Shown here one piece after another: positions 11,405-26,382 of a stretch of 64,000 bases of DNA. Below the pieces are notes generated by a model, which made no database searches, was not told the origin of the DNA, and was given only the letters and a program-made list of their open reading frames with translations. The position numbers and the translations under genes are program-made. The stretch is from an uncultured Lentisphaerota bacterium (GTDB lineage Bacteria; Verrucomicrobiota; Kiritimatiellia; RFP12; UBA1067). Position 1 is the first letter of the stretch, and each line of letters opens with the position of its first letter. The stretch is from assembly GCA_946413265.1 (NCBI GenBank), contig CAMKJU010000006.1, positions 1,659 through 65,658 on the forward strand. The letters run 5' to 3'.

Positions 11405-14023
11405 CTAGCGGCTCAACAGACCGGCCAGCTTGCCGCCGATGAAGGCGTAGCGGTCGCGCGGCAGTTTCGCCGCAACGCGCTCCAGCAGGGCTTTCACCTC
11501 TGCACGTAGATTCGGCTCAAACCGACGCCACACCGCCACGGGAGATAACAAGCGAATCGCGTTGTACTCGCTCACCTCCGCGTACTTGACGAGCGTCTCC
11601 TCCAGCCACGCGAGACCGCGTGGCGTCCAGAGCTGGTCGCCGTTCGCGGCAAAGCCGCAGTAAAGCGCACGACTGAGGCCGGGGTGCGTAATCGACCAGC
11701 CTTCGCGATGTTCCTCGCGCGCGATGGCGTCGAAAACATCCGCGTGAGGATCGCCCGCGACGAGTCCGAGATACGAAAGATAGCCATTGAGCGACTTGCG
11801 TAGTTCAACGCCCTCTTTCTCAAGGAGCTCCTTGCGCCCCGGATCGTCCGTGGAAACGAGCGCGCGCAGCGCATTGAGTCGTGCGGTGATGCTGGTGGAG
11901 CACAAGAGGTATGTGCGAATCGCCTCCCACGCCTCCGGAACGTTGGCAGCCGCGAGAAGCTGAAGTACGCAGTTTTCGTAGGCGCGGCGCTTGAGGGCGT
12001 CAACGGGCGAGACGCCCGTTGTCCCCGTGAAGCGGCGAGACGCCGATTCCCCCAGTGGTAGGGCGCGCTCGCCGAGCGCGCCGCAAAGTTTCTCCACACC
12101 GATCGCCTGGGCGGCCGCGCGGCGCAGGGTACGCATTTCCTGCACGTTCTCGCGGACGCGCGCACGACGATAGCGGTCGATTGAATCGGCCGGAATCGCG
12201 AGCAGCGCGCTTTTGAGGCCGTAGTCGAGCGACTGATCCGCATATATTTCCTTGTAAAGTGCAAGCCACGTTTCCACGCAGTTCTTATCGCGCAGGAGCC
12301 CCATAGCCTCCACGCGGTTACCGCCGTCAGGGTCGGTGCGCGCCTGACACGCGAGCTGCTCTTCGGTGGCAGATGGCGCGAGCATTCCGTAGAATGCGCC
12401 GCCACGGTTCCAGCTGATGAAATCTGGCTTCACCGGGAACGGCGCCGTGAACTCGGTGTAGTCTGTGGTTGAGTCCGAAGGCTCCAGCATGAACACGCCG
12501 CTGCAGAGATCCTTCCCATCCTTTACGGCCGTCCACGTGACCGGCACCGTGAACGGCGGTCGCGGGGCGACCGCCCTACCGGTGGATTCTTCTGTCGGCG
12601 GTTGCGGCAAGCGCGTCCCCGCCGGTAGGGCGGTCGCCCCGCGACCGCCGATGTCCGCGCGGTCTTGAGAGAGACGCACGGTCATGCGACCGTCCTTCCA
12701 GTCCCAGGCGGCGTGTACCGTGGGGAAGCCGACGGAGAAAAGGTAGGGGCCGATGAGGGCACGCACGTCGCGTCCGCTCACCTCCGAGAACACGCGTAGG
12801 AAGTCGTCCGTGTTCGCGTTGCCGCCCGAGAAGCGGCGGAAATATTCCTTCCACGCGGCTTGGTAGGCGTCCGCGCCGATGAGCGCGCGGAGGGTGTTGA
12901 GCACCTCGGGGGCCTTGTCGTAGGTGATGGCGTCAACGACCTCGTCCGGATCGTTCACGCCCTCGCGCACGACGGCGCCGGCCATACCGGCCTCCTCCTC
13001 GGCGAACGCGCCGCCCGTGCCGCGGAGCGACGCGATTTCGTCGCGGCGCATATAGTCCGCGCCGAAGACACGCGCGAGGTAGGCGCGCTCCACGTTAACC
13101 GTGTACGCCTCGTTGAGCCACATGTCGAACACGGTCTCCATCGTCACGCCGCTGCCGCAGTGGTTGTGTTCGTACTCATGGGGAATCACGCCGTGGGCGT
13201 AGATGAGACGCCGGTCGGGGATCGTGGAGTCGATGAGCGCCGCCTCGGTGATGATCGTCGTGTTGCCGGTGTTCTCCATGCCGCCGTAGAGCGACTTCTC
13301 CATGCAGATCGTGCGATACACCTCGAACGGGTACTCGTAACCGGTCACTTCGTGCTGGAACAGCACGGACTCCTTCAGAATGCGCATCGGCTCGCGCGCG
13401 CCGTCGAGATGTCCCGGCGGCACGAGGTACTCGAGCTTCACCTTCCGGTGCGTATCGGGATATTCCACCTCGTCAGCAAGCACCTCCCACGTGCCCGCGC
13501 AGGCGAGGAACAGGTAGGGCGCCATAGGACGGCGCATCTCGTAGACGACGCGGCGGCGTCCGTTGCCGAGGTCGCTTTCCTCCACGAGGTCGCCGTTAGA
13601 GATCAGGTGCGTGTAGCGCGCGTCGCCTTCGATTACGGTGCGGAACGTGCATTTCGCCGTGCAGTCGTCGATGATGGGCAGGATGCGCTGGAAGCCGTAT
13701 TGCTGGCACTGACTCATGTACTGTTGCGGACACCCCGGCGGCGTGACGTCGCAGTAGATGCCCTCCAGCCGCTTGCCGTCGGGATGGGCCACATGTTCCA
13801 CCGCCACCGTGAACTGCTCGCCGACCGCATATTCGCGGTCGAGCGGGTAGACGACCTTCTTGCCGTCGCAGTCGAGCGCGATCTCGCGCATCGTCTCTCG
13901 CGCGCGGCAGTGGAGCGTGCCTGAAGCCTCCACGCGATCCTCGTAGAAGGAAAGTTTTAGGTCAATGTGCTCCAGCTGCGCCGGAGGACGCTTGAATTCA
14001 GATCTCTTGTAAACGTATTCCAT
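11405..14023 (-). CDS. pepN: Aminopeptidase N (M1 family)
   Basis: Motifs SQCQQYGFQRI, GGMEN, HEYEH...WLNE and TYDKAPEV; PepN-type C-terminal helical region. Confidence 0.9.
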   Translation of the reverse strand: MEYVYKRSEFKRPPAQLEHIDLKLSFYEDRVEASGTLHCRARETMREIALDCDGKKVVYPLDREYAVGEQFTVAVEHVAHPDGKRLEGIYCDVTPPGCPQQYMSQCQQYGFQRILPIIDDCTAKCTFRTVIEGDARYTHLISNGDLVEESDLGNGRRRVVYEMRRPMAPYLFLACAGTWEVLADEVEYPDTHRKVKLEYLVPPGHLDGAREPMRILKESVLFQHEVTGYEYPFEVYRTICMEKSLYGGMENTGNTTIITEAALIDSTIPDRRLIYAHGVIPHEYEHNHCGSGVTMETVFDMWLNEAYTVNVERAYLARVFGADYMRRDEIASLRGTGGAFAEEEAGMAGAVVREGVNDPDEVVDAITYDKAPEVLNTLRALIGADAYQAAWKEYFRRFSGGNANTDDFLRVFSEVSGRDVRALIGPYLFSVGFPTVHAAWDWKDGRMTVRLSQDRADIGGRGATALPAGTRLPQPPTEESTGRAVAPRPPFTVPVTWTAVKDGKDLCSGVFMLEPSDSTTDYTEFTAPFPVKPDFISWNRGGAFYGMLAPSATEEQLACQARTDPDGGNRVEAMGLLRDKNCVETWLALYKEIYADQSLDYGLKSALLAIPADSIDRYRRARVRENVQEMRTLRRAAAQAIGVEKLCGALGERALPLGESASRRFTGTTGVSPVDALKRRAYENCVLQLLAAANVPEAWEAIRTYLLCSTSITARLNALRALVSTDDPGRKELLEKEGVELRKSLNGYLSYLGLVAGDPHADVFDAIAREEHREGWSITHPGLSRALYCGFAANGDQLWTPRGLAWLEETLVKYAEVSEYNAIRLLSPVAVWRRFEPNLRAEVKALLERVAAKLPRDRYAFIGGKLAGLLSR
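12001..12083. repeat. Cluster of three REP-like hairpins inside pepN
   Basis: CAACGGGCG-AGA-CGCCCGTTG (12001-12021), CGGCG-AGA-CGCCG (12033-12045) and GGTAGGGCGCGCTCGCCGAGCGCGCCG (12057-12083). Confidence 0.75.
12554..12650. repeat. GTAG-type REP doublet (REPIN-like) inside pepN
   Basis: 29-bp perfect inverted repeat CGGCGGTCGCGGGGCGACCGCCCTACCGG (12554-12582) and its reverse complement (12622-12650). Each arm is itself a hairpin. Confidence 0.88.
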
Positions 14024-14038
14024 AAACCGTCTTTAACC

Positions 14039-15163
14039 TTATGTCTTGCTTGTGGTTGATTTCATCTCCAAATTGACGACATCCCCCGTCCAATTCGCGT
14101 ATGCGTCGTCGACAATCCTGAACGCCCTTTGGATCGGGGCAAGCGACAACAGCCATTTGCCAACAAGCATGCGCCTTGGTATTTCCAGCAAAAGGCCGGA
14201 AAGATAAACGACGGCGACAACACCCGCCGTATACATGGGGTAGAGATCACTTGCCATCCATATCCTTGTCTGGAATATGTCATTCCACAGAAAACCGGAA
14301 AACGCCGGCGTGGAATGAATGACGTAAACGGCGAAGACAGAAGACGCAACATAGTTTATCCATCTGACCGAACCGATATTCAAGTGGACAAAGAAATAAA
14401 ACACCAGAAGCGCCGACACCAAATTGGGAAGTGTCTTGAAATCCGCAAGACATTGGACTGCCCACTCCTGGACGAGCGGGGAACCCTTCCGCTGCAACAC
14501 AACAAGCATCACGTAGAGAGCGATCCCCGCGATGAGCGCATGGTACTTGTACTTGCCTGACGACGAAAGCAGCGGTTTCAGAAAACCCACGAGGATGAAT
14601 GCATAGAAAAAGTAGCAGACATCCACTACATAGCACATCTGCGGATTAGGCAAAGTACATATTACAGGGATGATAACCGTCAGCAAGGCGACAAGGACTC
14701 CCAAAGACTTCCGTCTCAGCTTGAAGGCCGATTTCAGCCAAGGCGCGACAAGGGCAAGGGAAATGTACGCCGAGAAAAACCACAGAGGTCGTCCACAAAA
14801 CGGCACGAATCCTCGTAATACGTCCTTGGTCGTGGGATTTCCCAGAACAAGCCCCAGAATAGTCAACGGTACAGCGTAAAACAAAACAGTCAGATATAGC
14901 CTTGCTATTCGTTCGACCCTAAATCTATAATCGACCATAAACCAGCAGCCAATGAACAGGAACACATTCACGGCCCACCGCGCGCCACAGCCACAAAGGC
15001 GAAGCCACATGGAATCTCCGTGAATCGATGCAATTCCACTCTGGCCGATAAAGTGCCCTGCGACAATCATCAACATTGCCAGCACACGACACAATTCTAC
15101 GCCACTTGTACGTGTTTGAATGCTACCTTCCACCCGCTGGATTGCCAACTTGCTGAGTCCCAA
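14039..15163 (-). CDS. Acyltransferase family 3 (membrane O-acyltransferase)
   Basis: Motifs RTSGVELCRVLAMLMIVAGH, WFFSAY and SSVFAVYVIH; multi-TM. Confidence 0.82.
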   Translation of the reverse strand: MGLSKLAIQRVEGSIQTRTSGVELCRVLAMLMIVAGHFIGQSGIASIHGDSMWLRLCGCGARWAVNVFLFIGCWFMVDYRFRVERIARLYLTVLFYAVPLTILGLVLGNPTTKDVLRGFVPFCGRPLWFFSAYISLALVAPWLKSAFKLRRKSLGVLVALLTVIIPVICTLPNPQMCYVVDVCYFFYAFILVGFLKPLLSSSGKYKYHALIAGIALYVMLVVLQRKGSPLVQEWAVQCLADFKTLPNLVSALLVFYFFVHLNIGSVRWINYVASSVFAVYVIHSTPAFSGFLWNDIFQTRIWMASDLYPMYTAGVVAVVYLSGLLLEIPRRMLVGKWLLSLAPIQRAFRIVDDAYANWTGDVVNLEMKSTTSKT

Positions 15164-15183
15164 TTACAGACTAACCACTAGCC

Positions 15184-16056
15184 TCACTTGTCGTCGTCAC
15201 CACCATCGTCTTCGGGCTCATAGTTTTCCTGTAACCATGCTTCAGCCTTATCGATGTTAGACCAATCTTCGCCCGTGATGGTATTGTAGGTTTCCTTGGC
15301 CGCCTTAACCGCGGCGGAGTTACCGCCGTCTTCGATGACGTCGGCCAGCACCTGTATTGCCGCAAGGTCATCTATACCGATCAATTCGTTGGCGATGTCC
15401 TCAAGCATCTCGCCGTCGTTGATGCCTTTCATGGTCGCCTCGATCACACCCGCCTTTTCCCCCTCGTCGTCGATCTCCTGCAAGCCCGACATCCAGCCAT
15501 CCTTCGCAGCCCCGGCGACCTCCTCGTTCGCGTCCGCCATGAACTGCATCAACTCGACCATCGCATCCTTACCGAACCAGGAGAGCGCCTCCACGGCCAT
15601 TTCGCGGAGCTCGTCGTTCTTGGACGCCGCCGCCTCAGCGGCCAGCGCACGCGCGCTCTCGAGGTCGTCATTGTCAATGGCTTCGCGAGCCTGACGCATC
15701 AGCGCCTGATCCTTTTCGGGATAAGCCTTCCCGTCTGGATCACGGAAAACGTCATCGTCCCCGCCGCCAATACGGCCTGCAAGCCGCCCACCCAGCTTCG
15801 GCTTCTTCTTCTCGGCGACCTTTTCCCTAGGCGTCTGCGAACGCTCCGAGATTGGCTTCACGGCGCTCTTCTCGGCGCCCTTCTGGCGCAAGAGGGCAGA
15901 ACGCCTCCTACCCCTGGGCGACGTCTGTTTCGTCGAGGCGGACTTGCCGTCTCCACTAGGAATGAAAACATAGCAGAGCGTCGCGGCCACAACGGCAACT
16001 GCGACGCCAATGCCGATCCAATGCGCCCTCTTCACTTTAGCCGCCTTGCTATTCAA
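15184..16056 (-). CDS. Membrane-anchored HEAT-repeat-like protein
   Basis: N-terminal TM segment, basic linker, acidic helical repeats (LREMAVEALSWFG, LMQFMADANEEV). Confidence 0.7.
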   Translation of the reverse strand: MNSKAAKVKRAHWIGIGVAVAVVAATLCYVFIPSGDGKSASTKQTSPRGRRRSALLRQKGAEKSAVKPISERSQTPREKVAEKKKPKLGGRLAGRIGGGDDDVFRDPDGKAYPEKDQALMRQAREAIDNDDLESARALAAEAAASKNDELREMAVEALSWFGKDAMVELMQFMADANEEVAGAAKDGWMSGLQEIDDEGEKAGVIEATMKGINDGEMLEDIANELIGIDDLAAIQVLADVIEDGGNSAAVKAAKETYNTITGEDWSNIDKAEAWLQENYEPEDDGGDDDK

Positions 16057-16594
16057 TGGTGGCGGTCATCGACTCGCCCTTAACGGAAACCTTCAGCTCT
16101 CCGCCGATCTTGCCAGAGAACTTGGCCGTGTAGGACTTCACCTTCTTTTCGCTCTTGGCAACGTAGACCTTGAACGAGCCGGTGATTGTCCCCTTCTTCT
16201 TGTTGAGCTTGGCCTTCAGGGCACTGGGATTGTCCGAGTCCTTTGAATCTACGAAACCGCCTTCCTTCTTGCTGTATTTCACCTTGCCGGCCTTTGGCGC
16301 CTTCAACTTCTTGCCGGTCCATTCAAGCGCGACGCCGTCCGGCAGGAATTCCGACAGCACCTCGTAACCGTCAATTGTCTCAGGGAACTCGTCGTCAAGC
16401 GAAAAGGAGAGCGTATCGCCTTCATCCAGATCGCTCAGGCTGAACGAACTGGAATCGTCATCATCCGCAGTAGACTGCTCGGAGGCTGTCTCCGTTTTCT
16501 CGTAGTCGGAGGAAGTGGCACGCAAGGCCGCCTGGCACACTGAAGCAGCTGCGAAAAGCGCAGCCACCGCTATTGTCGTTCTTGTGATGTTCAT
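16049..16594 (-). CDS. Secreted protein consisting mainly of a Lys-rich beta C-terminal domain
   Basis: Signal peptide and AAGGAG RBS. GTITGSFKVYV...YTAKFSG motif resembles the C-terminus of the adjacent 612-aa protein. Confidence 0.75.
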   Translation of the reverse strand: MNITRTTIAVAALFAAASVCQAALRATSSDYEKTETASEQSTADDDDSSSFSLSDLDEGDTLSFSLDDEFPETIDGYEVLSEFLPDGVALEWTGKKLKAPKAGKVKYSKKEGGFVDSKDSDNPSALKAKLNKKKGTITGSFKVYVAKSEKKVKSYTAKFSGKIGGELKVSVKGESMTATIE

Positions 16595-16637
16595 TTTCTT
16601 TTCTCCTTTTTGGGGTTGAGTTGTCTTTCAAGCGTCT

Positions 16638-18476
16638 TCAGCATCCGCCGCCGCACGATCCAGCGAGCTTCAACGCCCATGTGGCGACATTCCGTATCAC
16701 CGCAGTGCCATAAGGCACGCCGTTGACGACTGCACCGCTCACATTCACCCTTAGTTTCCTGGGTCTAGTGCCGTCCGTGACGTAGATGCTGAACGATCCC
16801 TTGAACGTGCCGTTCTTCTGGACGAACGTCACGTTGAGGTCGGAAATGCCCTTGGTGCCCGCCCACTTCCTACCGTTGGAAATCACGGCGTCATCCACCG
16901 GCGAAACCACGACCTGCTTCCCACCGACTCCTGCCGCCGAACTGAAGCCCTCAAGCTGAAGATACATCGTTTCGGGAACTACGCCCGCGCCGGAATTTAC
17001 TGAAAAGATCGCGTCTGGCGACCAGACACCTGCGGATTTCGTCGTCTTCCACCCTGAGACGCCCTTCACCGCGGAAAGTTTCCAGTTGTCGAACTCAAGC
17101 AACATCGAAAAGACCCTGTTCTTGCCGATGACGGGCACCAGCACCTTGCCGTTCTCGCCGAACAGAGCCTGTGCGGAAACCATGACCTTGCTGCCGTCGC
17201 CGAGGTAGCCAGTCACCTTGACCTTGCCCTTCGTGACCGTTGCGACGGAAAACGCCGAATACCCGCTTCCACCATCTCCGGCATTTGCCAGTGCAAAAGT
17301 CCAAAAGTTCTTCTGGAATGTCGCGGCGCGGGCTGTTGCGGCGGCGTCCTTCGCCCTGAATGGATTCCGAGCACCCTGCACCGTATATGTGGCCGTACCG
17401 TCATTGTAGGAGCCGACCAGGCCATCCGTGCCGATCGTAACGGAGGCGGTGACTTGCGAACCAGTTTTCGACAGCAAGATCCTTTCGCCTTCCGTCCCGT
17501 CGGTGACGCCCGTCAAGGTAGTCGCGCGTCCGCCGGAGATCTGGATGCGGCCCGTCACCTTAATCGCTCCCGTACGCGCCTTGCGAGCGGTCTTGAACGT
17601 TGCAACGCCCATGGGAACGCCACTGGCGTCCGTCAGCACCGAATCGTACGTCTGCGCGGCGGCACCCTCGACCCCACCCACGCCGGGCTTGACAAAAAGG
17701 TCACTGCTGCCGCCAGTCCTAATCGCCTCTATTTCGTCTATTACGTAGCTCAGTCCAACGGCGGGATCGGTTCTCATGCTGTAACTAAAACGCCCGGCCT
17801 CATTGCCCTCGGAATCTATTACGATGATCGTGGGATATCCCACACGGCGGTAGACAGTAGTCGGGTTAGCCGCATAGACGGCAAGGTTCGTCGTCATGCC
17901 GTCAGCGGAAATCTCCACGAGGATGTTGTTGTTCGTGGTGGTGGCTGAGCCCTCGGAGTGCATGAGATTCTGAAATTCAAAGCGCTTGACATACTCGTCT
18001 GCAATCTGCTGCGGCGTCCAGTCGCCAATGCCGTTCGCCGCCCGGTACGCGGGATCCCAAAGCCAAGTCCACATCGTATGGCCGTCCCGGTACGGAAAAT
18101 CAAGTGCCGCAAGATAGTACCCGCGCTCGGCCACATACTGCTTGAAGGCGTTCTTTTGAAGGACGTTTGCCTCAAGCGACTGGCAGTGCGGACACCACCA
18201 CATGCCGGCGAAAAGCAGAAGCGTATACTTGCCCTCCGCCTTTGCCTTCGCAAGGGCTCCTTCGTAGTTGAACGTCCACTCTCCGGGATTGACCGCGCTC
18301 CACTTCGGCACCAATGCGGAAGGACCAAAGTTGTATGGAGTGCCGGGCTTGAAGTCTGGAGCCCAGTCTGCTTTGACAGTCATAGCGCAGGCAAGCATGA
18401 TTGCGAAGACGTTTGCCGCAATACTGCAAGATGGCACTTTCCCTGACCACGTACTTGAAAACGATTTTTCTTCCAT
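16638..18476 (-). CDS. Exported thioredoxin-fold protein (WCPHC) with beta-rich C-terminal region
   Basis: Motifs GEWTFNYEGALAKAK, WWCPHC, ALDFP and GYPTIIVID; ends SCGGGC. Confidence 0.8.
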   Translation of the reverse strand: MEEKSFSSTWSGKVPSCSIAANVFAIMLACAMTVKADWAPDFKPGTPYNFGPSALVPKWSAVNPGEWTFNYEGALAKAKAEGKYTLLLFAGMWWCPHCQSLEANVLQKNAFKQYVAERGYYLAALDFPYRDGHTMWTWLWDPAYRAANGIGDWTPQQIADEYVKRFEFQNLMHSEGSATTTNNNILVEISADGMTTNLAVYAANPTTVYRRVGYPTIIVIDSEGNEAGRFSYSMRTDPAVGLSYVIDEIEAIRTGGSSDLFVKPGVGGVEGAAAQTYDSVLTDASGVPMGVATFKTARKARTGAIKVTGRIQISGGRATTLTGVTDGTEGERILLSKTGSQVTASVTIGTDGLVGSYNDGTATYTVQGARNPFRAKDAAATARAATFQKNFWTFALANAGDGGSGYSAFSVATVTKGKVKVTGYLGDGSKVMVSAQALFGENGKVLVPVIGKNRVFSMLLEFDNWKLSAVKGVSGWKTTKSAGVWSPDAIFSVNSGAGVVPETMYLQLEGFSSAAGVGGKQVVVSPVDDAVISNGRKWAGTKGISDLNVTFVQKNGTFKGSFSIYVTDGTRPRKLRVNVSGAVVNGVPYGTAVIRNVATWALKLAGSCGGGC

Positions 18477-18591
18477 AGCGAATACGCCTCTTTCTTACCT
18501 ATTAAGGGTTGCGAGATAGTATACCACAAAATTCATCGTCTGCTGCATTGAAAACACCTGTCATTTGCAATTGGGATTTTCTATACCCCCG

Positions 18592-20376
18592 TCAAAGCGA
18601 CAACACCAGCCCCACCCAACCAGGCAGATACGCCTCTGCGCCCTCCGTCACCAATACTCCGCCGTCAGAAGAGTCAATGCGCCCGTATACATCCACGTAG
18701 CGAGCGGCGAACTCGCCAACCACCATTGCGAACTTGCACGATCTGCGCAGGCTTTCAGGCACGGCGTCTAGCGGCATGGCGGGGGAAAGGAAGATCAATT
18801 CCGCCGCCCTCGGCGCCTTGCCCTCTTTCCAGAGCTTCAAGTATTCATCGCAAAGCCTGCCGGCCACCGCTAGTCTCCTGACGCGGGGCGGAAGGTCTGA
18901 AAGTTTCTGTACATACCCTAGCGGCTTCGCCCCTGGGTGCGCAGAATAGAAGTACCTTATTTCCTTTGGCGCAAAAAGCCATCCAATCGAGTACCTGTCG
19001 TCGGCAATCCAGACATCAGGATTGCGCGATCCCACCAAGACCCTTCCGCCATCGGCCTTTATCGGCAGCACGGCAAGACGCGAAGGCTCGCGTCCGGCCC
19101 AGTAGAACGCCACGCAGACAGCCAGCGAGACAACTGCGGCGGACACTAGAGGCACAATGTACTTCTTCGGCATCTTCCATGGCCGCGATGCTGCGAACGG
19201 CCATAACGACGCGACGGGTATGATCCACAGCGACCAGACGTGTATAAGCGGGTTGAACACCGCCGCCAATGCCACAGCAGAGAATTGGGCCAACGGCAGC
19301 GGCGAGCCGCCGACGACGGAAAAGCGAAACAAAGCAAACAGCGCGCCAAACCAGATTAGCCCCCAGAGAAAACGGCCTACCCACCCGACCTCCGTCATGT
19401 AGGTGAGATGGTCGCTGTCAAGCGTAGGGGTGATATAATTACTGGAAAGCGGCTGATACCAGTCGCTGTACGCGCGCCCAGCCCGCGTCCCGCCCCACCC
19501 GCCTGGCGAATCGACCATCATGCGCGGCACGAACGGCCACATTTCAGAACGTTCCACGGCGACTAAAGAGAGTTTCTTCGAAAACCTTCCACCAAAGTCC
19601 ACGCCGACGAAGAAAGCCACTGCGGCGGCAATCATTAGCATGGAAACTAGCGCAGCCCTTATTTTCCCGCCACGCCTGAAAAATCTAAATCCAAGCATCA
19701 ATAGCGATCCAAGTGCCAAGCCGAGAGCTGCGCCGCGCCCGCCGGTCTTCACAAGGAAGTACGATGCCGAAACGAAAGCCACAGCACCCGCCACAACGAT
19801 GATAGCCGCAACTATCTTATTTCCGCGGCCAAACAGGAAGGCAAAAAGGCCTAGCAACGCCAACTCAGCGAGAAGCAGCGCTGCATGGTTTGGATTTACG
19901 TAAAACAGCCGAAGACGATTTCCGGTAAATTTTTCCACGACGGATTCGCGGGCGTCCTCCTCTGCACCCTCCCACATCGTCGGGATTTGCCCAGGAATCA
20001 CCGGTTCATCGTCAAACTTCACATTCAGCCGCTTACCCTGCGATGAAACCATCGAAAACGGCCTTCCCTTGCGGAACGTGTAGCTCGCCGATGATCCAGG
20101 CTCGCGAACGGTCATGTCGCCTGTCGGCTCCCTCACCACGCTCCATCCACCGGGGCCAACGATAGTTCCATCGCGCCAGTGCCTGCGAAACTCCACCATT
20201 CCCGTTCCAGGTACGTAAAGCCGGAAGAAGTTTGCGCCGTCCATAGGCGCAAAGTACATCTGCATGAACCTCTCGGCCTCGGACTGCGCACCGACTCCCG
20301 CACCGCCATCTGCGATGGCTGCAGGAACTGCCACGAACGTGGCAACGAGACAGACAAGAAACGCGAACTTTTTCAT
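18592..20376 (-). CDS. O-antigen ligase / O-oligosaccharyltransferase-like membrane protein
   Basis: Start MKKFAFLV at 20376 (ATGA overlap). Wzy_C-type motifs NPNHAA, TGGRGA, RSEMW and HLTYMTEVGWVG. Confidence 0.7.
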   Translation of the reverse strand: MKKFAFLVCLVATFVAVPAAIADGGAGVGAQSEAERFMQMYFAPMDGANFFRLYVPGTGMVEFRRHWRDGTIVGPGGWSVVREPTGDMTVREPGSSASYTFRKGRPFSMVSSQGKRLNVKFDDEPVIPGQIPTMWEGAEEDARESVVEKFTGNRLRLFYVNPNHAALLLAELALLGLFAFLFGRGNKIVAAIIVVAGAVAFVSASYFLVKTGGRGAALGLALGSLLMLGFRFFRRGGKIRAALVSMLMIAAAVAFFVGVDFGGRFSKKLSLVAVERSEMWPFVPRMMVDSPGGWGGTRAGRAYSDWYQPLSSNYITPTLDSDHLTYMTEVGWVGRFLWGLIWFGALFALFRFSVVGGSPLPLAQFSAVALAAVFNPLIHVWSLWIIPVASLWPFAASRPWKMPKKYIVPLVSAAVVSLAVCVAFYWAGREPSRLAVLPIKADGGRVLVGSRNPDVWIADDRYSIGWLFAPKEIRYFYSAHPGAKPLGYVQKLSDLPPRVRRLAVAGRLCDEYLKLWKEGKAPRAAELIFLSPAMPLDAVPESLRRSCKFAMVVGEFAARYVDVYGRIDSSDGGVLVTEGAEAYLPGWVGLVLSL

Positions 20377-20783
20377 TCGCTTCCGATTCCAAACTTGCCG
20401 GCCACAGGAATCTTGACGTCGGCTGGCATGACAATCTTCCATGTACCGTCGTCATTCGACATAAAGCCAAGGCCCGGATATTCCATCGAAAGGTTCGTCA
20501 TGGCCACGGCAATCGGCTCCAGAAGCTCTGACGGTTTCATGTCCTTGCTACCCACCGTTATTGCACAATCATTGGCATTAGTCGTCACCTCAAATTTCAC
20601 GGCAGGATTGTCAAGCCCATCAAACCCGGCGCACGCACGCACGATCGCAACGGCAAATTCAGCCTTGCGCTCCAGTGGCGCATCGCCCAGCGCGACGAGC
20701 TTTGGCTGCGAATCGCCGCAGCCTGTAAGGATGGTCAGGGCCGCAATGCCGGACACCAAGGTAAAAACACGCATCGCCTTCAT
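20373..20783 (-). CDS. Putative lipoprotein
   Basis: Lipobox LTGC after a hydrophobic stretch; translationally coupled to both neighbours. Confidence 0.7.
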   Translation of the reverse strand: MKAMRVFTLVSGIAALTILTGCGDSQPKLVALGDAPLERKAEFAVAIVRACAGFDGLDNPAVKFEVTTNANDCAITVGSKDMKPSELLEPIAVAMTNLSMEYPGLGFMSNDDGTWKIVMPADVKIPVAGKFGIGSE

Positions 20784-22369
20784 TTTGCGCCTCCATTTGC
20801 GCTCTTCTCATATCGGCCGCCCTGAACCGTGCATTCGCGGATGGACGTCGGATATTCGGCATCGCCCCAAATAGCCTTCGTCCCTCCGTACGGCACAATG
20901 GTGCCCTGGCCGCCGTAAATCTTCAGTACGGCCGACACGTAATTCTTCGCGGCGGATTTGAACAACGGAACAACACAGGAATTTTCCGCGTCAAGCATCG
21001 CAAACGCAGTGCCAGTTACCTTCTTGCCGTTTGGAAGCGTCCCACCCCAGTTGACCCTGCCAGCAGAAGTAATTTTCTTGACGTAAATAGTCCCTACGCC
21101 AGAATCTTCCGCCATGCTTACGGTATACGCGCCGACGAATGCGTCTGCGTACCCGCCGGTGCCGACCTTCACTCCATCCGGCGAAGCGATCGGTGAACCC
21201 AGCGCAGAATCCGACAAAACGGCCTTCAGCCGACCATCGCTCGCGAGTTCAAGGTAAAGCGTGCGGCCTCCCGATGTGAGCGTCGCAAACGCCCTCCCTC
21301 CTTCAATGTCCGTCCATGCCCCGGAAAACGTTGCCCTGCCGCGTTGCAGACTGGAATACTTTGCCCTCACCCTGTTGCGGGCGGTGGCGGCAAATTCAAG
21401 CGTCCCGACGGCACTTCCCGACGACAAGAGCGGCACCGTGGCCTTGAGGGCGCTGCCTAACATCGCGCAGCCTCCCTGCGACACATCGTTTGCCGCCGCC
21501 ACGTTGAACGAGAATGTTATGTCGGGGCCTGCGTACAGTACGCCATTGAGCTTCTGCTGAAGCGAAACGACGTAAGAGTACACTCCGGCTTTGCGGGCCG
21601 TTCCCGAAAGCGACACAAGGTTGTCCTTGCACGTGAGCTTCACCCCAGGCGGAAGGCTGCCCGATGTCTTTTTCATCACAACTTTTGAGCCGACCTTGAC
21701 ATTGTACACGGTCTGTGGAGACAACTCCTTTGCCGCGTTCAAGCCCACGAACAGCTTCAAGTCGTATGCGAGCTTTGTGGTCACGGGATCCGAATACAGC
21801 ATCTCGGCGTGCGCCGAGATATCAGGAACCGATGTGAAATCGTATTCGCCTACAACCGATTCAATCGAGCCAATCAACTGCGCGGCAAGCGACCCGCTCT
21901 TCACGAGCATCTCCCCGTCGCGCCCGTTGAACGTCCTGTAAAGTTCACTGTCCCTTTGAGGCGCGTAGCCGTAGCGGTTCCAGTAGACCGCCATATACGG
22001 GAACCCGGCCGCCTCAGACGGTTTGGAAAAACCCGAGGCGTCACCCTTGGAGTTGTTCGTCGTGAAGACCATCAACATCCCGTGCGTGCGCTGCCATGCA
22101 AGGAACTCGTCCGAAAGGCAGGCCGTCTGCAGCAGTTCGCACTTGCCGCATGACAACCCTCCGTAGAAAACAAGCAGCGGGACGTTGTATGCGTTCGCGG
22201 CCGCAAGCGCGCCGCTGAAGTTGGAGTTCCATTCACCCAGCCTGAGGGCTCCATCTGAGACCGGCATAAGCACCGCCGCGCGCGACAGCTCTCCGTTCGC
22301 CGATACGGCTACGGAGAGCGCGGCCGCCATGGCCGCTCCAAGACAGTTCTTCCTGAAACTCCAGTTCAT
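20780..22369 (-). CDS. Exported thioredoxin-fold protein (CGKC) with Ig-like (He_PIG-like) segment
   Basis: Signal peptide; GEWNSNFSGALAAA, SCGKC and GFPY; SGSLPPGVKL...LSGT Ig-like motif. Confidence 0.75.
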   Translation of the reverse strand: MNWSFRKNCLGAAMAAALSVAVSANGELSRAAVLMPVSDGALRLGEWNSNFSGALAAANAYNVPLLVFYGGLSCGKCELLQTACLSDEFLAWQRTHGMLMVFTTNNSKGDASGFSKPSEAAGFPYMAVYWNRYGYAPQRDSELYRTFNGRDGEMLVKSGSLAAQLIGSIESVVGEYDFTSVPDISAHAEMLYSDPVTTKLAYDLKLFVGLNAAKELSPQTVYNVKVGSKVVMKKTSGSLPPGVKLTCKDNLVSLSGTARKAGVYSYVVSLQQKLNGVLYAGPDITFSFNVAAANDVSQGGCAMLGSALKATVPLLSSGSAVGTLEFAATARNRVRAKYSSLQRGRATFSGAWTDIEGGRAFATLTSGGRTLYLELASDGRLKAVLSDSALGSPIASPDGVKVGTGGYADAFVGAYTVSMAEDSGVGTIYVKKITSAGRVNWGGTLPNGKKVTGTAFAMLDAENSCVVPLFKSAAKNYVSAVLKIYGGQGTIVPYGGTKAIWGDAEYPTSIRECTVQGGRYEKSANGGAK

Positions 22370-22381
22370 CTGCACCCACGC

Positions 22382-23905
22382 CTACTTGATCGTGAACGTG
22401 AACTTCTCGTCGCCCTGACGGCCGCCGCCGATGGCGTTGGGCGCGTAGCCCGTGCTGTAGATGACGCCAGACGACTTGTACGTCTTGCCGTTCAGCTTGT
22501 ATGTGGCGGCGACCTGGCCCTTGGAGGCCGTACACCTTATGCGGGCGTTGTAGTCGTTTGCGCCGGCGGCGATCTTGCGCTCGCTGGCGGTGACGGGAAC
22601 GCTGATATATCCCGCGCCGACAGTGCCGAACGTCTTTCCGTTCATGCCCGCGATCAGGCCCTTGTTCCAGAACGAGCCTTCAACGGCGTCAAAGGTCTGC
22701 GAGCCATACGAGACGCTGCCGCCAAGCGTGCCGTCGGCAAAAAGCGCACACCCCACGTTCACGCCGGCGCGCGTGCTTCCGTGCGCGAAGCGCACATTCC
22801 CGCGCCCCGCCCAGCGCGGAACGTATGCGCTGACAAACGCCGCCGGGAACACCGCGCTCTCGCAGTTGCCGGAAATCTTCGTGGTGTTCGAGATCTTCCC
22901 GTTGAACGCGATCCTGCCCGTAGTACCGACCGTGGCCGTGGCCCAGCCGCCCTGCGTGGGGGACGCCGACGAGTAGAAGCCGACGTTCCAGGCACCCTTC
23001 CATGTAGCATCGGCCTTGTCTGCGACCTTGCCATAGACCCTGCGCCCGGAATGCGTGCCGGACCAAATGCCCGTGCTGGTATCGTATGTGAGGTTCAGCG
23101 CCGACGACCCCGTAGAAAGAACCCCGTCCGACTTCACTACGGAACCCCTCAGCGTCGTCGCAACGCCGCCTTCCTGGATCTTGGCAGTCCACCTGCCGCG
23201 CGCCGCAACCCGCAGCTGCGCGGATGCCACGATTTCATCGCTGCCGTTGAAGAAGAAGAGCGCGTACTTTCCCCTTGGAACCTCCGTAGACGACACCACT
23301 GCGCCGGACTGCGTGGAAGACGACGTAGTTTCCGTCGTGGTTGCGCTTGCCGCAGGCGCTACCGCCGTGGGCACCCATCCCGAGGAGGTCGGCGCGATCT
23401 CGGCGATCGATGCCGAAAGATACTGGTAGAGCGCGGGGCCACTAGAACTGACCGGACGTGTTTCATACGACCACCCAGCGTAGCGCTTTCCATCCGGCTT
23501 GATGAGGATTACCTGTGGATAGCCGCTATCGCCCATCTCGTACTTCAAGAAGTAATTTCGAAAGTAAGTCTCAGAAACGTTGCCGTAGGCGGACTCCGAC
23601 GGCCACTTGTTCAGGAGGACCATGTAGAACTTGTAGCTCGCCACGATGTTGGCAAAGTTGTCAGTGTTGAGCGTATTCCTGATGAACTGCATGCAGTGCT
23701 GGCATCCATCGCCAGTGCTACTGTCGTTGATCATGACAAGCAGAATCGGAAGCCCCGTCGTTTTTGCGGCCGCAAGCACGCCTTCCATGTTGCGAGTCCA
23801 CTGGTTGGGTTCCGTTCCTGTACCCACCGTAGGCAGAACTGCCGCCGTGGCGCTGGCGGCGTACAAGACGGCGGCTGCCACAATGCTCTTGACTATTGAT
23901 TTCAT
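22382..23905 (-). CDS. Exported thioredoxin-fold protein (CQHC)
   Basis: Signal peptide; NQWTRNMEGVLAAAK, GCQHC and GYPQVILIKPDG; Ser/Thr linker then a beta-rich C-terminus. Confidence 0.78.
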   Translation of the reverse strand: MKSIVKSIVAAAVLYAASATAAVLPTVGTGTEPNQWTRNMEGVLAAAKTTGLPILLVMINDSSTGDGCQHCMQFIRNTLNTDNFANIVASYKFYMVLLNKWPSESAYGNVSETYFRNYFLKYEMGDSGYPQVILIKPDGKRYAGWSYETRPVSSSGPALYQYLSASIAEIAPTSSGWVPTAVAPAASATTTETTSSSTQSGAVVSSTEVPRGKYALFFFNGSDEIVASAQLRVAARGRWTAKIQEGGVATTLRGSVVKSDGVLSTGSSALNLTYDTSTGIWSGTHSGRRVYGKVADKADATWKGAWNVGFYSSASPTQGGWATATVGTTGRIAFNGKISNTTKISGNCESAVFPAAFVSAYVPRWAGRGNVRFAHGSTRAGVNVGCALFADGTLGGSVSYGSQTFDAVEGSFWNKGLIAGMNGKTFGTVGAGYISVPVTASERKIAAGANDYNARIRCTASKGQVAATYKLNGKTYKSSGVIYSTGYAPNAIGGGRQGDEKFTFTIK

Positions 23906-23959
23906 TTTTTACCTTTCTTTCACTGAATTTCGACGGGAACCAGACCTTCCAGCACCCAC

Positions 23960-25159
23960 CTACTTTACTCTCTTTACAAGCCTACGTCTCTTACCCGGTC
24001 CCGACGAATCCCACAGCGGAACCTTGCTGTTGATCTTGACTTTGGCGACAAGCTCCTGAAATGTCGCCTTCGTCAAAGCCTTCATCTTGATCGACTCGAT
24101 GTACCCCTGCGCCTGCTTGGGCGAGAACTCAGGATCCAGAAGATCCTTCTCAACCACGATTTCCGCCATCTCCACTGTTGGCCCGTTGTCCTCTTCCGCA
24201 GCATTGCGCTTCAGCAGCCGAACGATATACCATGCCTTCGGCGTATCGATAACACCGCTCACCTCTCCATCCTTGAGACCGACTAGCGCTGACCACACCT
24301 GCGTGGGCAAGTCGTCCTCCGCCACACGGGCAGGACGCTCATCCGCCTCGTCCATAACGACGCCGCGCGTGGAGGAACTCTCGCTGTCGCTCCACAGCTC
24401 CGCCGCCTCGCCAAATTCCATCCCCCCCTTCAACTTGACGAGCATCTCCGACATGAAAGCCCGCCTCTGCAAATTGGTCGCTGTAGTCGCGAGATTGGCG
24501 GAATGCCTGATGCCAATCATCTTCGCAATCTCCCTCTCGTCCGTCTTGCAAAGGGAAACCATCTCCTTTTCCTTGTACGCGAGCCAGTACAGGGCATTCG
24601 TGAGATTATGCTCGTAAAACGACTCCCCGCCGTCCATCAAGGCCTGAAGCGACTTCCCAGTATCGCCCATCTGGGCATATCCCTCTCTAGCCTTTGCACG
24701 GTATTCCTCAAATTTTTCGGGGGCAACCGTGAGGCCAATCCGTTTCGCCTCAACGGCGAATACGGCGTGTTCCATGTAGTCCTTCAGAAGCTTGCGCAAC
24801 CGCATATTGTAGGCAATCTTCTTTACTGCGGCATTCCCCTCCATCTGCATGTCAGGACGGTCGATGCCAGAACAGAGAACCTCGACGTGCCGCCGCAGAA
24901 GTCCCCATTTCAGCGAATCCCAGCCCTCTATTTCCACAAGCACGTCATCGTCCTTAAGTTTGGACAAAATGCTCTCCGTACTTGTTTCCGCAGCCGCCGG
25001 CTTCTTTCCCGTCATTGAGTAGACATTCCTGCCGACCTGACGCGCATTGTCGAAAGCCCTGGAAATGCCGCTTTGCGGTTTCGGCGCAACCGTCTGCGCA
25101 CAAACCGAAAAGGACAACAGCAATAGCACCGATAGTGTATGTGGTTTGAAGTTGGACAT
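23960..25159 (-). CDS. SurA/PrsA-like parvulin peptidyl-prolyl isomerase chaperone
   Basis: Signal peptide from MSNFKPH (25159); motifs FGEAAELWSDSESSSTRG and GEVSGVIDTPKAWYIVRL. Confidence 0.75.
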   Translation of the reverse strand: MSNFKPHTLSVLLLLSFSVCAQTVAPKPQSGISRAFDNARQVGRNVYSMTGKKPAAAETSTESILSKLKDDDVLVEIEGWDSLKWGLLRRHVEVLCSGIDRPDMQMEGNAAVKKIAYNMRLRKLLKDYMEHAVFAVEAKRIGLTVAPEKFEEYRAKAREGYAQMGDTGKSLQALMDGGESFYEHNLTNALYWLAYKEKEMVSLCKTDEREIAKMIGIRHSANLATTATNLQRRAFMSEMLVKLKGGMEFGEAAELWSDSESSSTRGVVMDEADERPARVAEDDLPTQVWSALVGLKDGEVSGVIDTPKAWYIVRLLKRNAAEEDNGPTVEMAEIVVEKDLLDPEFSPKQAQGYIESIKMKALTKATFQELVAKVKINSKVPLWDSSGPGKRRRLVKRVK

Positions 25160-25269
25160 CTTGGAAATCGCCTTATTCGGTAAAGAAAACGGGTGGCATA
25201 GAGATTGTTCTCTACCCACCCGTCCTGCACGTATCAAGCGTGCATCCTTTCAGATTTTCTCAAATCTGA

Positions 25270-26055
25270 TTACTCAATCTCGAAGGAGGTACCCGCGAGA
25301 CCCTGAGCGCCGCTGACCGTCTTGACCTTGCTCTGGTAAGCAGCCTTCCAGGTGCCGCCGAAGATATCCACGGCGTCGCACTCGCAACGGAAGCAGTCTT
25401 CCGGACCGACGCAAGGATACCAGCCGACGAACCAGCCAGCATACTTCTTCGGGGTGTAGACCGGATCGCAACCCTTCGTCTCGCTGCAGTAGCCGCTCTT
25501 GCCGTCCTTGGTGACCTTCATGTCGACCTTGCCGAACGAAGACGCCCAGAACGCGAAGGGATCGCCGTCTTCAAAGTCAACTTCGCCAGACCAAGCCTCA
25601 GAATCTTCCGGAGCCATCACGAAGAGTGCGGACTCGAGGCAGACGCTCTTGCCAGGCTTGATCGCGGTCAGATAGTTCTGAGAAGCCGCGAGCTTCTTGC
25701 CAAAGAGCGACCAGACCTTGACGTCAACAGGCGTACCGACCTGGAACGTCTTCTTGCCGACCTTGACCGTGGCGAAGAAGTAGCCCGTGTCGTAGCAGCA
25801 CGCGCCCGTATCAGTGCAGACCGTACCCTCGAGGGCGAGAGCGCCCTTCTTGATCTTGAGGGAAGCAACGGTCTTGTACTCGCCCTTGTCCGTGACAGCC
25901 TTACCAGAACCCGTCACCTTGAAGACGATGGTGTCGCAATCCGTAGGAGCAAGCGAACCGCCTCCGCAGTCAACGCACGCTCCAGGCAGAAGCGACGCAG
26001 CGTTTCCGACAACCGTCATCGCCGCAGCAGCGGCAAATGTCATCAGTTTCTTCAT
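25270..26055 (-). CDS. Secreted cysteine-rich protein (261 aa, 13 Cys); candidate major surface protein
   Basis: Start MKKLMTFAAAAAM at 26055 after AAAGGAAA. Strongly biased codons (AAG, TTC, GGC, GCT). Motifs CVDC, CC and CFRCEC. Confidence 0.8.
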   Translation of the reverse strand: MKKLMTFAAAAAMTVVGNAASLLPGACVDCGGGSLAPTDCDTIVFKVTGSGKAVTDKGEYKTVASLKIKKGALALEGTVCTDTGACCYDTGYFFATVKVGKKTFQVGTPVDVKVWSLFGKKLAASQNYLTAIKPGKSVCLESALFVMAPEDSEAWSGEVDFEDGDPFAFWASSFGKVDMKVTKDGKSGYCSETKGCDPVYTPKKYAGWFVGWYPCVGPEDCFRCECDAVDIFGGTWKAAYQSKVKTVSGAQGLAGTSFEIE

Positions 26056-26353
26056 TGTTGTTTTTTCCTTTTTGCCTTTTCTTTCAGTTCGTCGGTTTTC
26101 CGACTCGCCTCCACCGGAGCTACCCGGTTGACCCGTTTGATTCGGTGGTATCGCACCGACCCACTTTATTGCACCCGCGTGGACACGGTCGGCACACATG
26201 TTATGCCATTCAGCAGATTGGAACGGTTTGAGTTTCGCGCTCCGCACTACCCACTTCCTTAAAATAGATTGCGGGTCAACTTTCATTGAGCCCGGTTATT
26301 CCTAGGCCCGGACACAATGTCCAAAGCCCGCCCTATTTCGTGAAAGCGCGGGT

Positions 26354-26382
26354 ATTGTATCAAAACTTGCTCCCGCACGCAA
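26354..26382 (-). promoter_or_regulatory. Sigma70-type promoter of the Cys-rich protein operon
   Basis: Minus strand TTGCGT-N17-TACAAT with extended TG, which implies a leader of about 290 nt. Confidence 0.6.

Follow-up and report, generated by a model that had tools for sequence, protein, structure and literature searches.

What does a run of ten co-oriented genes, headed by a gene for a cysteine-rich exported protein and preceded by a long conserved leader, do for an uncultured bacterium of the Kiritimatiellia? All ten genes lie on the minus strand and, with their promoter, span positions 14039–26382 of the window, by which we mean the whole 64,000-nt stretch of contig CAMKJU010000006.1 that was analyzed (assembly GCA_946413265.1; 4.70 Mb, 275 contigs, 92.8% complete). 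The original prediction, made from the sequence and its open reading frames (ORFs), described a dedicated pathway that matures an abundant, disulfide-bonded surface protein. The answer that we favor, and that we hold to be about evenly poised between right and wrong, is that rumen Kiritimatiellae possess here a conserved accessory locus devoted to a single exported barrel protein, one that is abundant and diversifies fast. This answer rests on a structured leader RNA, on the hypervariable protein family encoded directly behind that leader, and on an accessory gene set that recurs in the loci compared. The elements at the head of the locus are the following:

26354..26382, minus strand: promoter-like site with a -35 box and a TG-extended -10 box, in a pattern conserved in aligned upstream regions
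26056..26347, minus strand: structured 5' leader RNA of ~290 nt, recognized by conservation and compensatory changes
25270..26055, minus strand: lead protein gene, 261 aa with 13 cysteines, exported, signal peptide MKKLMTFAAAAAMTVVGNAA
25182..25225, minus strand: intrinsic terminator-like hairpin and U-tract between the lead gene and the next gene, recognized by fold energy

A long leader had been part of the original prediction, and the distance from the lead start codon to the upstream gene is indeed 358 nt; the end coordinate given there, 26382, falls on the -35 box of a conserved promoter. The -35 box TTGCGT (26382–26377) is followed, after a spacer of 17 nt, by a TG-extended -10 box TACAAT (26359–26354), from which a transcript start near 26347 is predicted. 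Most of 30 aligned upstream regions keep the promoter pattern CCCCCTTGMS-17-TAYAAT, and behind it stand ~290 nt with long invariant blocks. Across four genomes of the genus, the 358 nt upstream of the lead gene have a mean column identity of 89%, compared with only 53–63% between the lead protein of the window and its closest same-genus orthologues: judged by these alignments, the leader is far more constrained than the protein that it precedes.

RNAalifold predicts 51 pairs in the leader, arranged in at least 9 helices, and 22 of these pairs carry compensatory changes. In the leader alignment, 95.5% of the cells at paired positions can pair, compared with 29–46% when the partners are slid by 1–3 columns; double-change pairs number 22, compared with 4–10 in the slid controls, and none of 500 shuffles reaches the observed values, all of these being counts made on the same alignment from which the structure was derived. 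The ~290-nt leader is a previously undescribed structured RNA. Rfam 15 returned nothing for it at E ≤ 1 in a 13.5-kb scan, and with a 391-nt query alone it returned two matches at E 1.4–1.5, with ~17 bits against gathering thresholds of 41 and 49. The last ~45 leader columns (A-rich stretch, ribosome-binding site (RBS) and AUG) are unpaired both in the consensus and in the single-sequence fold, and a search for a terminator inside the leader found none. Because the RBS is unpaired and no internal terminator is present, the leader would be a binding platform or an mRNA stabilizer rather than a classical on/off riboswitch. Two candidates for a conserved upstream ORF were rejected: the in-frame extension of the lead gene (ORF 25270–26286) is not kept in relatives, and the ATG in the conserved block of the leader changes frame between variants.

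The element is single-copy in the genome of the window. A lead-type ORF stands at a fixed distance behind it in 29 of 30 genome loci, the remaining locus being truncated where its contig stops. With an exact 26-nt core pattern, 71 metagenome contigs were retrieved, and a lead-type ORF begins 152–165 nt after the motif in all 69 contigs that are uncut there (the other two are cut). Throughout the genomes and metagenome contigs searched, the leader occurs only ahead of this one gene family. In 43 metagenome contigs, no more than 1200 nt separate the motif from the upstream contig end, and 24 of these ends cluster 118–130 nt before it; in the window this corresponds to about 26331–26341, which is 6–16 nt downstream of the predicted start. 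The clustering fits a transcript start near this point; assembly breaks at the edge of the conserved block are an alternative.

Long structured leaders that stabilize abundant transcripts of envelope proteins have precedents in the 5' untranslated regions of ompA and S-layer genes, which share with the leader studied here a strong promoter, an open RBS and a putatively abundant exported product. The leader differs from them in its length of ~290 nt with at least 9 helices, in having no Rfam match, and in invariant stretches that exceed what hairpins need.

The ORFs behind the leader encode proteins of ~220–350 aa with a near-invariant signal peptide, MKKLMIAAA.AAM.GGAFA, and highly divergent mature parts: BLASTP links the protein of the window to only 9 of the 29. 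All 29 are nonetheless connected by alignments that reach past the signal peptide, the 28 complete proteins falling without exception into one superfamily, and they share the motifs KTT (in strand 1), FGK, AGFG, SG...G and GTW..KYNKK. By these alignments, the lead proteins are one hypervariable family. When 1.84 billion representatives were searched with a profile of 28 members, the matches formed 719 clusters (50% identity), of which 523 reached E ≤ 1e-10. No Pfam family matches the lead protein of the window at E ≤ 0.01, a Pfam scan of 28 lead proteins gave just two stray single matches (E about 0.005), and family members carry no informative name in the sequence sources searched. Cysteine counts range from 6 to 14 in genome loci and from 6 to 16 in metagenome loci. 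The odd number that the original prediction had read as allowing intermolecular links does not hold for the family: the count is even in 16 of 29 lead proteins.

In a maximum-likelihood tree, types of lead protein and genera do not coincide. For genus g1 the starred branches require three or more changes of type, and a g1 lead protein is sister to a g27 lead protein with 98/97 support; this pattern suggests either that the types are old and were lost differentially or that genera have exchanged them. Two genomes, G223 and G118 (contig C25), hold two leader-plus-cluster copies each; in the former (C1:77668–79594, loci L044 and L045) the copies lie head to head, ~1.3 kb apart, and their lead types differ.

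The AlphaFold 2 (AF2) model of the lead protein, built from 47 sequences, reached a pLDDT of 84.6 and a pTM of 0.81, and has eight long strands of 12–20 residues. Its closest structural matches are transmembrane barrels: a designed barrel (Z 12.7, rmsd 2.1, 116 residues aligned), OprF-N (11.9), a Thermus outer-membrane protein (OMP; 11.7), OmpA (11.6), PagL (11.5) and OmpW (11.2). Soluble barrels follow at Z 6.6–9.1 (avidins, YceI, NHBA, HpuA and the TbpB C-lobe). Foldseek against the PDB returned only PsbO-type barrels with a TM-score of ~0.2, which is uninformative, and the only match in the ESM Atlas was a cluster without a name, whose value of 0.79 is too low to be useful. The lead protein is predicted to be an eight-stranded beta-barrel. 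On none of the strands do large hydrophobic residues line up along one side; the apolar sides are rich in Gly, Ala and Ser and the others in Lys and Asp, and the mature protein contains 25 Lys and 29 Asp plus Glu in 240 residues and lacks a C-terminal aromatic residue. Since the strand faces show no clear lipid-facing belt and the protein is rich in charge, we tentatively favor a soluble barrel. All 13 cysteines lie before strand 1, in inter-strand loops or at strand ends, and nine of them are invariant or nearly so within the close family.

The original prediction had suggested complex modeling as a check on self-assembly, and the result agrees with self-association. The homodimer prediction scored 0.88, compared with 0.28 for the best control; among proteins of solved structure, 20 of 30 homo-pairs and 1 of 23 single chains attain that mark, counts that are only rough because our own alignment was used. 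Dimer runs share at least 91% of their contacts, the pLDDT of the partner is at least 81, and the interface of ~190–230 contacts runs along the strands and includes the invariant residues G207, W208, F209 and G211. The modeling thus supports a homodimer of the lead protein.

How the lead gene is transcribed bears on how it relates to the nine genes behind it. Between its stop (25270) and the start of the next gene, a GC-rich hairpin is followed by UUUUCUUU at 25225–25182. A 116-nt segment of this region folds at -43.7 kcal/mol (z = -5.16), and none of 200 shuffles folds as well; by a crude rule, at least 12 of the 28 other loci have a similar hairpin and T-run behind their lead gene. The presence of a strong terminator directly after the lead gene means that the ten genes do not form the simple operon that had been proposed. 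Sheep and bovine gut metatranscriptomes are consistent with a short unit. RNA contigs from four runs of two studies cover 25217–26298, 25210–26095, 25219–26074 and 25251–26264, the first of them 1082 nt long and 100% identical to the window; as the contigs span both parts, RNA libraries contain the leader together with the lead gene. In both studies, contigs stop within the terminator hairpin (25210–25219), a weak hint of a 3' end, weak because hairpins also break assemblies. Between 13500 and 28500, the four runs contain only a few contigs of 150–240 nt outside 25210–26312, with a word depth of 2–3.4 and bin means of ~0.3–1.1. Because the runs were preselected and are available as contigs, these bare parts are no sign of low expression, and the expression rank that the original prediction had asked for is not derivable. 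The lead gene is probably a mostly monocistronic, strongly transcribed unit.

The strong codon bias ascribed to the lead gene stands relative to its neighbors and falls away relative to the genome. Its effective number of codons (Nc), 37.2, is lower than in the nine neighbor genes (43.9–57.4), but in a ranking of 2179 long ORFs from the genome it stands no better than at the 36th percentile. The genes behind it (14039–25237) lie at the 70th–98th Nc percentile, with a lower GC content at third codon positions (GC3) than most of the genome; their weak bias would fit low expression or foreign origin. The acyltransferase gene has the weakest codon bias and the lowest GC3 of the ten.

The nine genes that follow the terminator, whose number, order and shared orientation the original prediction had given correctly according to ORF calls, Pfam and the lipobox, are these:

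23960..25237, minus strand: exported PPIC-type peptidyl-prolyl isomerase (PPIase), Pfam Rotamase 32.4 bits against a cut-off of 21.7
22382..23905, minus strand: exported CQHC protein with a Trx7-like domain, Thioredoxin_7 24.2 bits, below the cut-off of 27
20780..22375, minus strand: exported CGKC protein with a Trx7-like domain, Thioredoxin_7 18.5 bits, below the cut-off of 27
20373..20783, minus strand: small lipoprotein of 136 aa, lipobox LTGC
18592..20442, minus strand: Wzy_C membrane protein (O-antigen ligase family), Pfam 37.2 bits against a cut-off of 31.7
16638..18476, minus strand: exported 612-aa CPHC protein, Thioredoxin_7 35.7 bits against a cut-off of 27
16049..16594, minus strand: small exported protein, C-terminal part like the last barrel of the thioredoxin fusion proteins
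15184..16056, minus strand: acidic, membrane-anchored HEAT-like repeat protein, Pfam HEAT_2 21.7 bits, below the cut-off
14039..15163, minus strand: Acyl_transf_3 membrane protein, Pfam 72.9 bits

Conservation of this set was assessed in 24 loci, namely that of the window and 23 more, which come from 22 other genomes; contig ends truncate two of these loci. For this, 20 further regions reaching up to 18 kb downstream of leader matches were fetched. Loci were picked solely by the leader or the lead protein, and each was searched with iterated profiles; because selection used only these two, the counts of accessory genes are not circular. A PPIase gene directly follows the lead gene in 24/24 loci, CxxC thioredoxin-like proteins are encoded in 24/24, the HEAT-like protein in 21/24, Wzy_C in 17/24, ORFs related to the small barrel protein in 14/24 and the lipoprotein in 7/24. 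The gene set is kept far beyond chance, and the predicted association holds in this respect; it does not extend to the acyltransferase, which is found in 1/24 loci, that of the window, and which adjoins the cluster outside the conserved set. The order from lead gene to PPIase to thioredoxin-like protein is kept in all 24 loci, across at least three genera and at protein identities down to 25–45%. Pfam scans of eight of the most distant loci recovered the rotamase domain in 7/8 second genes, Thioredoxin_7 in 7/8 and Wzy_C in 5/8; in the eighth locus the thioredoxin-like protein was found only by profile and BLAST searches. Within the 24 loci, the lipoprotein and the CQHC-type protein are confined to clusters with the lead type of the window. 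Among 32 other genomes of the genus, three encode the lead protein, and in these the genes from the lead gene to the HEAT-like gene occur in near-identical order without the acyltransferase.

Beyond these loci, BLAST found leader DNA in 47/202 other genomes of the family at 72–89% identity and in 0/98 genomes from other families of the same order. A covariance model of a 145-nt core (R1) found it in 24/150 family genomes, a count that includes two chance-level matches of ~17–18 bits (E 4.5e-4 and 8.7e-4); the matches are otherwise strong (96–160 bits) or absent, and the model did not widen the known range of the leader. The Wzy_C protein led to two more genomes, in both of which thioredoxin and Wzy_C genes are present. 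Of these two, G034, which belongs to another genus, has a lead-type gene with a shorter, different leader, and R1 gave no match upstream of that gene. R1 gave nothing convincing in loci L011, L012, L063 and L064, and tblastn detected no cluster genes beside the distant lead-like proteins of G035 and G059 (L011 and L012). As for habitat, two relatives of the 612-aa protein come from a Goat_Rumen Kiritimatiellae metagenome-assembled genome (MAG) and from an uncultured rumen genome. Some clusters also include genes for exported peptidases, namely reprolysin-like metallopeptidases and one Peptidase_C10 protein with Ig-like domains (L045 8908–10512; L044 9671–11668; L053 6002–7948).

The thioredoxin-like proteins keep their active-site motif throughout: each locus has one to four CxxC thioredoxin-like domains, and the CxxC is kept in 59/59 domains (45 proteins, 24 loci). 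In the window, the CQHC protein consists of a Trx7-like domain, a linker rich in Ser, Thr, Ala and Pro, and a beta-rich C-terminal part, and the CGKC protein of a Trx7-like domain and a beta-rich C-terminal part; their orthologues match Thioredoxin_7 (PF13899) at 27–37 bits. For the 612-aa protein, the AF2 model (built from 13 sequences, pLDDT 77.1) shows an N-terminal thioredoxin fold followed by three eight-stranded barrels. Its thioredoxin domain is best matched by Chlamydia pneumoniae DsbH (2ju5; Z 11.7, rmsd 2.5, 123 residues, 24% identity), with DsbD-gamma-like domains next. The barrels match those of NHBA, HpuA, a haemophore and TbpB at Z 8–10, NHBA and HpuA reaching about 10, and Foldseek found TbpB at E = 1.4e-5. 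Residues W93, W94, C95, P96, C98, C608 and C612 are invariant in 13 orthologues; the C-terminal cysteine motif to which the last two belong reads CGGGC in the window and CGSC, CNAC or CDAC elsewhere, and it may act as an additional redox site. A further protein of the 612-aa type, with 42–44% identity, is encoded inside the cluster in two relatives (L008 3833–5713; L009 3604–5412) and, in the genome of the window, on another contig (C44:3456–5252).

The NCBIfam model for DsbH (NF043050) is the best match of two of the three thioredoxin proteins, at 43.2 and 25.9 bits, both far below its equivalog cut-off of 190 bits; as these domains fall below the cut-off and DsbH is their nearest fold, we call them DsbH-like, not DsbH. 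The genome encodes one DsbD-type membrane protein (92.2 bits), and neither DsbB nor VKOR was found in the 92.8%-complete assembly. With DsbH-like domains and a DsbD-type protein present and no DsbB or VKOR found, an oxidative pathway that would cross-link the lead protein is not evident, and reduction or isomerization suits the thioredoxin domains no less well than oxidation. According to PMC5193440, DsbH is a reducing oxidoreductase to which the upkeep of a reduced periplasm in chlamydiae is ascribed, and up to 2016 there was no report of it outside Chlamydia.

The comparison with the chlamydial outer membrane complex (MOMP, OmcA and OmcB with Dsb proteins) is thus two-sided. Both systems belong to the PVC group (Planctomycetes, Verrucomicrobia and Chlamydiae) and involve a cysteine-rich exported envelope candidate, and the fold nearest to the thioredoxin domain is a chlamydial one. 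However, the kinship to a Chlamydia-type coat that the original prediction had drawn on does not extend to the lead protein, which matches no OmcA, OmcB or MOMP family of Pfam, and here the thioredoxin domains are fused to barrels and encoded beside their presumed substrate. Chlamydia also has a DsbA/DsbB pair according to PMC6752827, whereas DsbB was not found in the genome of the window.

The PPIase, whose true start is likely the ATG at 25159 (MSNFK...), had been called SurA-like. In the protein of the window only the rotamase domain was detected, and this domain recurs at 26.7–51.7 bits in 7/8 orthologues scanned; for the SurA N-terminal domain, SurA_N of Pfam gave no match in the protein of the window and matched one of the eight orthologues at 23.1 bits, below the cut-off of 27.2. 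A search with the PPIase against PDB sequences gave no match at E ≤ 0.01.

By its sequence matches, the membrane protein encoded at 18592–20442 belongs to the O-antigen ligase family: five orthologues score 37.5–52.3 bits, above the PF04932 cut-off of 31.7, and the WaaL structure 7tpg is matched weakly (E = 0.008) when 16 orthologues are combined into a profile, a single-sequence search against PDB sequences giving no match. All 16 sequences share R214, R276 and H323 (counted from the ATG at 20376), which may correspond to the catalytic residues of WaaL. The protein has an extra N-terminal periplasmic domain and a C-terminal domain, and its probable start (ATG at 20376) overlaps the stop of the lipoprotein gene; the LTGC lipobox of that lipoprotein is conserved in 3/3 close relatives. 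A shorter Wzy_C paralogue without the N-terminal periplasmic domain is encoded elsewhere in the same genome (C11:41246–42412, a frame of 425 aa), and similar short forms occur in several relatives. Linkers rich in Ser, Thr, Ala and Pro in proteins encoded near Wzy_C would suit a role as targets of protein O-glycosylation. In the pilA-tfpO/pilO and PglL systems of Pseudomonas, Neisseria and Acinetobacter, which pair a major-subunit gene with a dedicated O-oligosaccharyltransferase, a Wzy_C enzyme likewise stands behind a strongly expressed gene for a hypervariable exported structural protein, and the linkers are similar to known O-glycosylation sites. The locus differs from these systems in that its lead protein has a Sec signal peptide and a barrel fold and is no pilin, in that Wzy_C is missing from 7/24 loci, and in that the cluster has no conserved glycan genes.

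HEAT_2 reaches up to 42.2 bits in orthologues of the HEAT-like protein. The pair formed by a C-terminal barrel module and a HEAT-like protein recurs outside the cluster (C54:1781–2792; L010 3350–4428), and numerous large proteins of the genome (open frames of ~580–1530 aa) likewise have the barrel module at their C-terminal end. A weak Rfam match to the ALIL pseudoknot at 15922–16015 on the plus strand, opposite to the genes (18.8 bits against a gathering threshold of 50, E = 0.28), is probably due to chance. NCBIfam returned nothing above chance for the lead, Wzy_C, small, HEAT-like and acyltransferase-3 proteins.

Just downstream of the acyltransferase gene, 11405–14023 (minus strand) encodes an 872-aa M1-family aminopeptidase (Peptidase_M1 110.6 bits, DUF3458_C 99.7 bits) with higher GC and typical codon bias, which marks the end of the cluster. 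Upstream of the leader, 26414–28468 (minus strand) encodes a 684-aa protein that matches no Pfam or NCBIfam family; its first 140–180 residues have two paralogues in the same genome (contigs C104 and C72), and it is not syntenic with the cluster in relatives.

In the explanation that we favor, a sigma-70-type promoter would drive a ~1.1-kb transcript comprising the ~290-nt leader and the lead gene and ending at the terminator, with the leader acting as a binding platform for a factor or ligand, as an mRNA stabilizer, or as both. The near-invariant Sec signal peptide would export the lead protein, which would fold into an eight-stranded barrel with its cysteines in the end loops and pair, probably through the invariant GWF.G strand of the family. 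The genes past the terminator would be expressed by read-through or from promoters of their own. Their products would be periplasmic helpers (the prolyl isomerase, the DsbH-like thioredoxin-barrel fusions, the HEAT-like protein and usually Wzy_C) that fold the lead protein and manage its thiols or disulfides, and that possibly glycosylate the lead protein and its barrel relatives or attach them at the envelope. An envelope-maturation function of the cluster is plausible; a disulfide coat, glycosylation, acylation and a surface location of the lead protein are likewise putative.

Several points weigh against this account. The thioredoxin domains resemble a reductase, and the partners of an oxidizing pathway, DsbB and VKOR, were not found. 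The codon bias of the lead gene is unremarkable for this genome, and the RNA runs, which consist of contigs only, had been chosen with this very stretch. Wzy_C is absent from seven loci, two of which are cut short. The patchy distribution of the leader in the family (47/202 by BLAST, 24/150 by R1) is unexpected for an essential envelope component, and fragmentation of MAGs at variable loci may hide copies. The abundance, envelope location and surface position of the lead protein, its disulfides, redox chemistry and glycans, and the action of the leader are what we infer.

The fold matches give rise to two competing accounts, each of which we consider improbable. If the lead protein were a secreted or surface ligand-binding barrel, comparable to haemophores, TbpB, avidins or YceI, that takes up a scarce nutrient, the leader would be a riboswitch or a factor-binding element sensing this nutrient, and the thioredoxin-barrel proteins would be related binders. 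The barrels of the 612-aa protein do resemble NHBA, HpuA, a haemophore and TbpB (Z 8–10), the lead model also resembles avidins, YceI, NHBA, HpuA and the TbpB C-lobe (Z 6.6–9.1), and the leader has riboswitch-like invariant stretches in loops and stems. However, the conserved genes include no transporter and no TonB-dependent receptor, the unpaired RBS and terminator-free leader offer no visible expression platform, and hypervariability of the whole surface would be unusual for a ligand binder; a shared fold is not a shared function. The neisserial surface lipoproteins TbpB, HpuA and NHBA and the haemophores have the C-terminal barrel fold in common with the locus, the lead model matching them more weakly (Z 6.6–7.3), but the barrel proteins here show no sequence family match and carry no lipobox; no Slam-type translocator is among the conserved genes, in which no search aimed at Slam was made. 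Were the lead protein instead a small barrel embedded in the outer membrane, a major OMP like OmpA, OmpW or OprF-N, the PPIase would be its SurA-like chaperone. That its strands are long and its best matches are transmembrane eight-stranded barrels (Z 11–12.7) speaks for such an embedding, but the strand faces lack a clear hydrophobic belt, the protein is rich in Lys, Asp and Glu and has no C-terminal aromatic residue, the predicted dimer interface runs along the strands, and no OMP family of Pfam matches.

A very unlikely account, in our judgment, is that unrelated exported proteins merely lie behind a strongly expressed gene and owe their shared domains to local duplication. It would explain why a terminator parts the lead gene from the rest, why the content varies after the first three genes, with peptidases or Ig-like proteins in some clusters, and why many of the other large proteins encoded in the genome contain the barrel domain too; yet the lead–PPIase–thioredoxin order is unbroken in 24/24 loci from at least three genera at identities down to 25–45%, and the accessory gene types co-vary with the lead type. 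A bolder version of the favored account, which we regard as rather unlikely, would make the leader a new class of ligand- or protein-sensing RNA that governs a hypervariable, disulfide-stapled, self-assembling coat, together with a thioredoxin-barrel CxxxC thiol relay and cassette exchange between genera. If true, it would be a free-living PVC counterpart of the cross-linked chlamydial envelope with switching of antigenic type by exchange of whole cassettes, and a self-contained extracytoplasmic thiol-disulfide relay in a strict anaerobe without DsbB and VKOR.

We return to the accessory locus of an exported barrel protein. The domains of its proteins are all of known kinds; neither Pfam, NCBIfam, Rfam nor the literature searched holds a description of the way in which they are combined, of the lead family or of the leader RNA. 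Literature searches on the outer membrane of rumen Kiritimatiellae, on RFP12 metatranscriptomes and on cysteine-rich surfaces of Kiritimatiellota gave nothing on the locus. Kiritimatiellae of the rumen and hindgut are abundant and uncultured, and to our knowledge nothing is known about their envelope. The locus presents a candidate for a major exposed protein of these bacteria, which would make it a possible target of phages, protozoa and antibodies and a possible marker for strain typing. Its leader is an RNA motif absent from Rfam and under unusually strong constraint. The DsbH-like thioredoxin domains, found here outside Chlamydia, are fused to barrels and encoded beside a cysteine-rich candidate client, an arrangement relevant to the question of how strict anaerobes that have neither DsbB nor VKOR deal with the cysteines of exported proteins.

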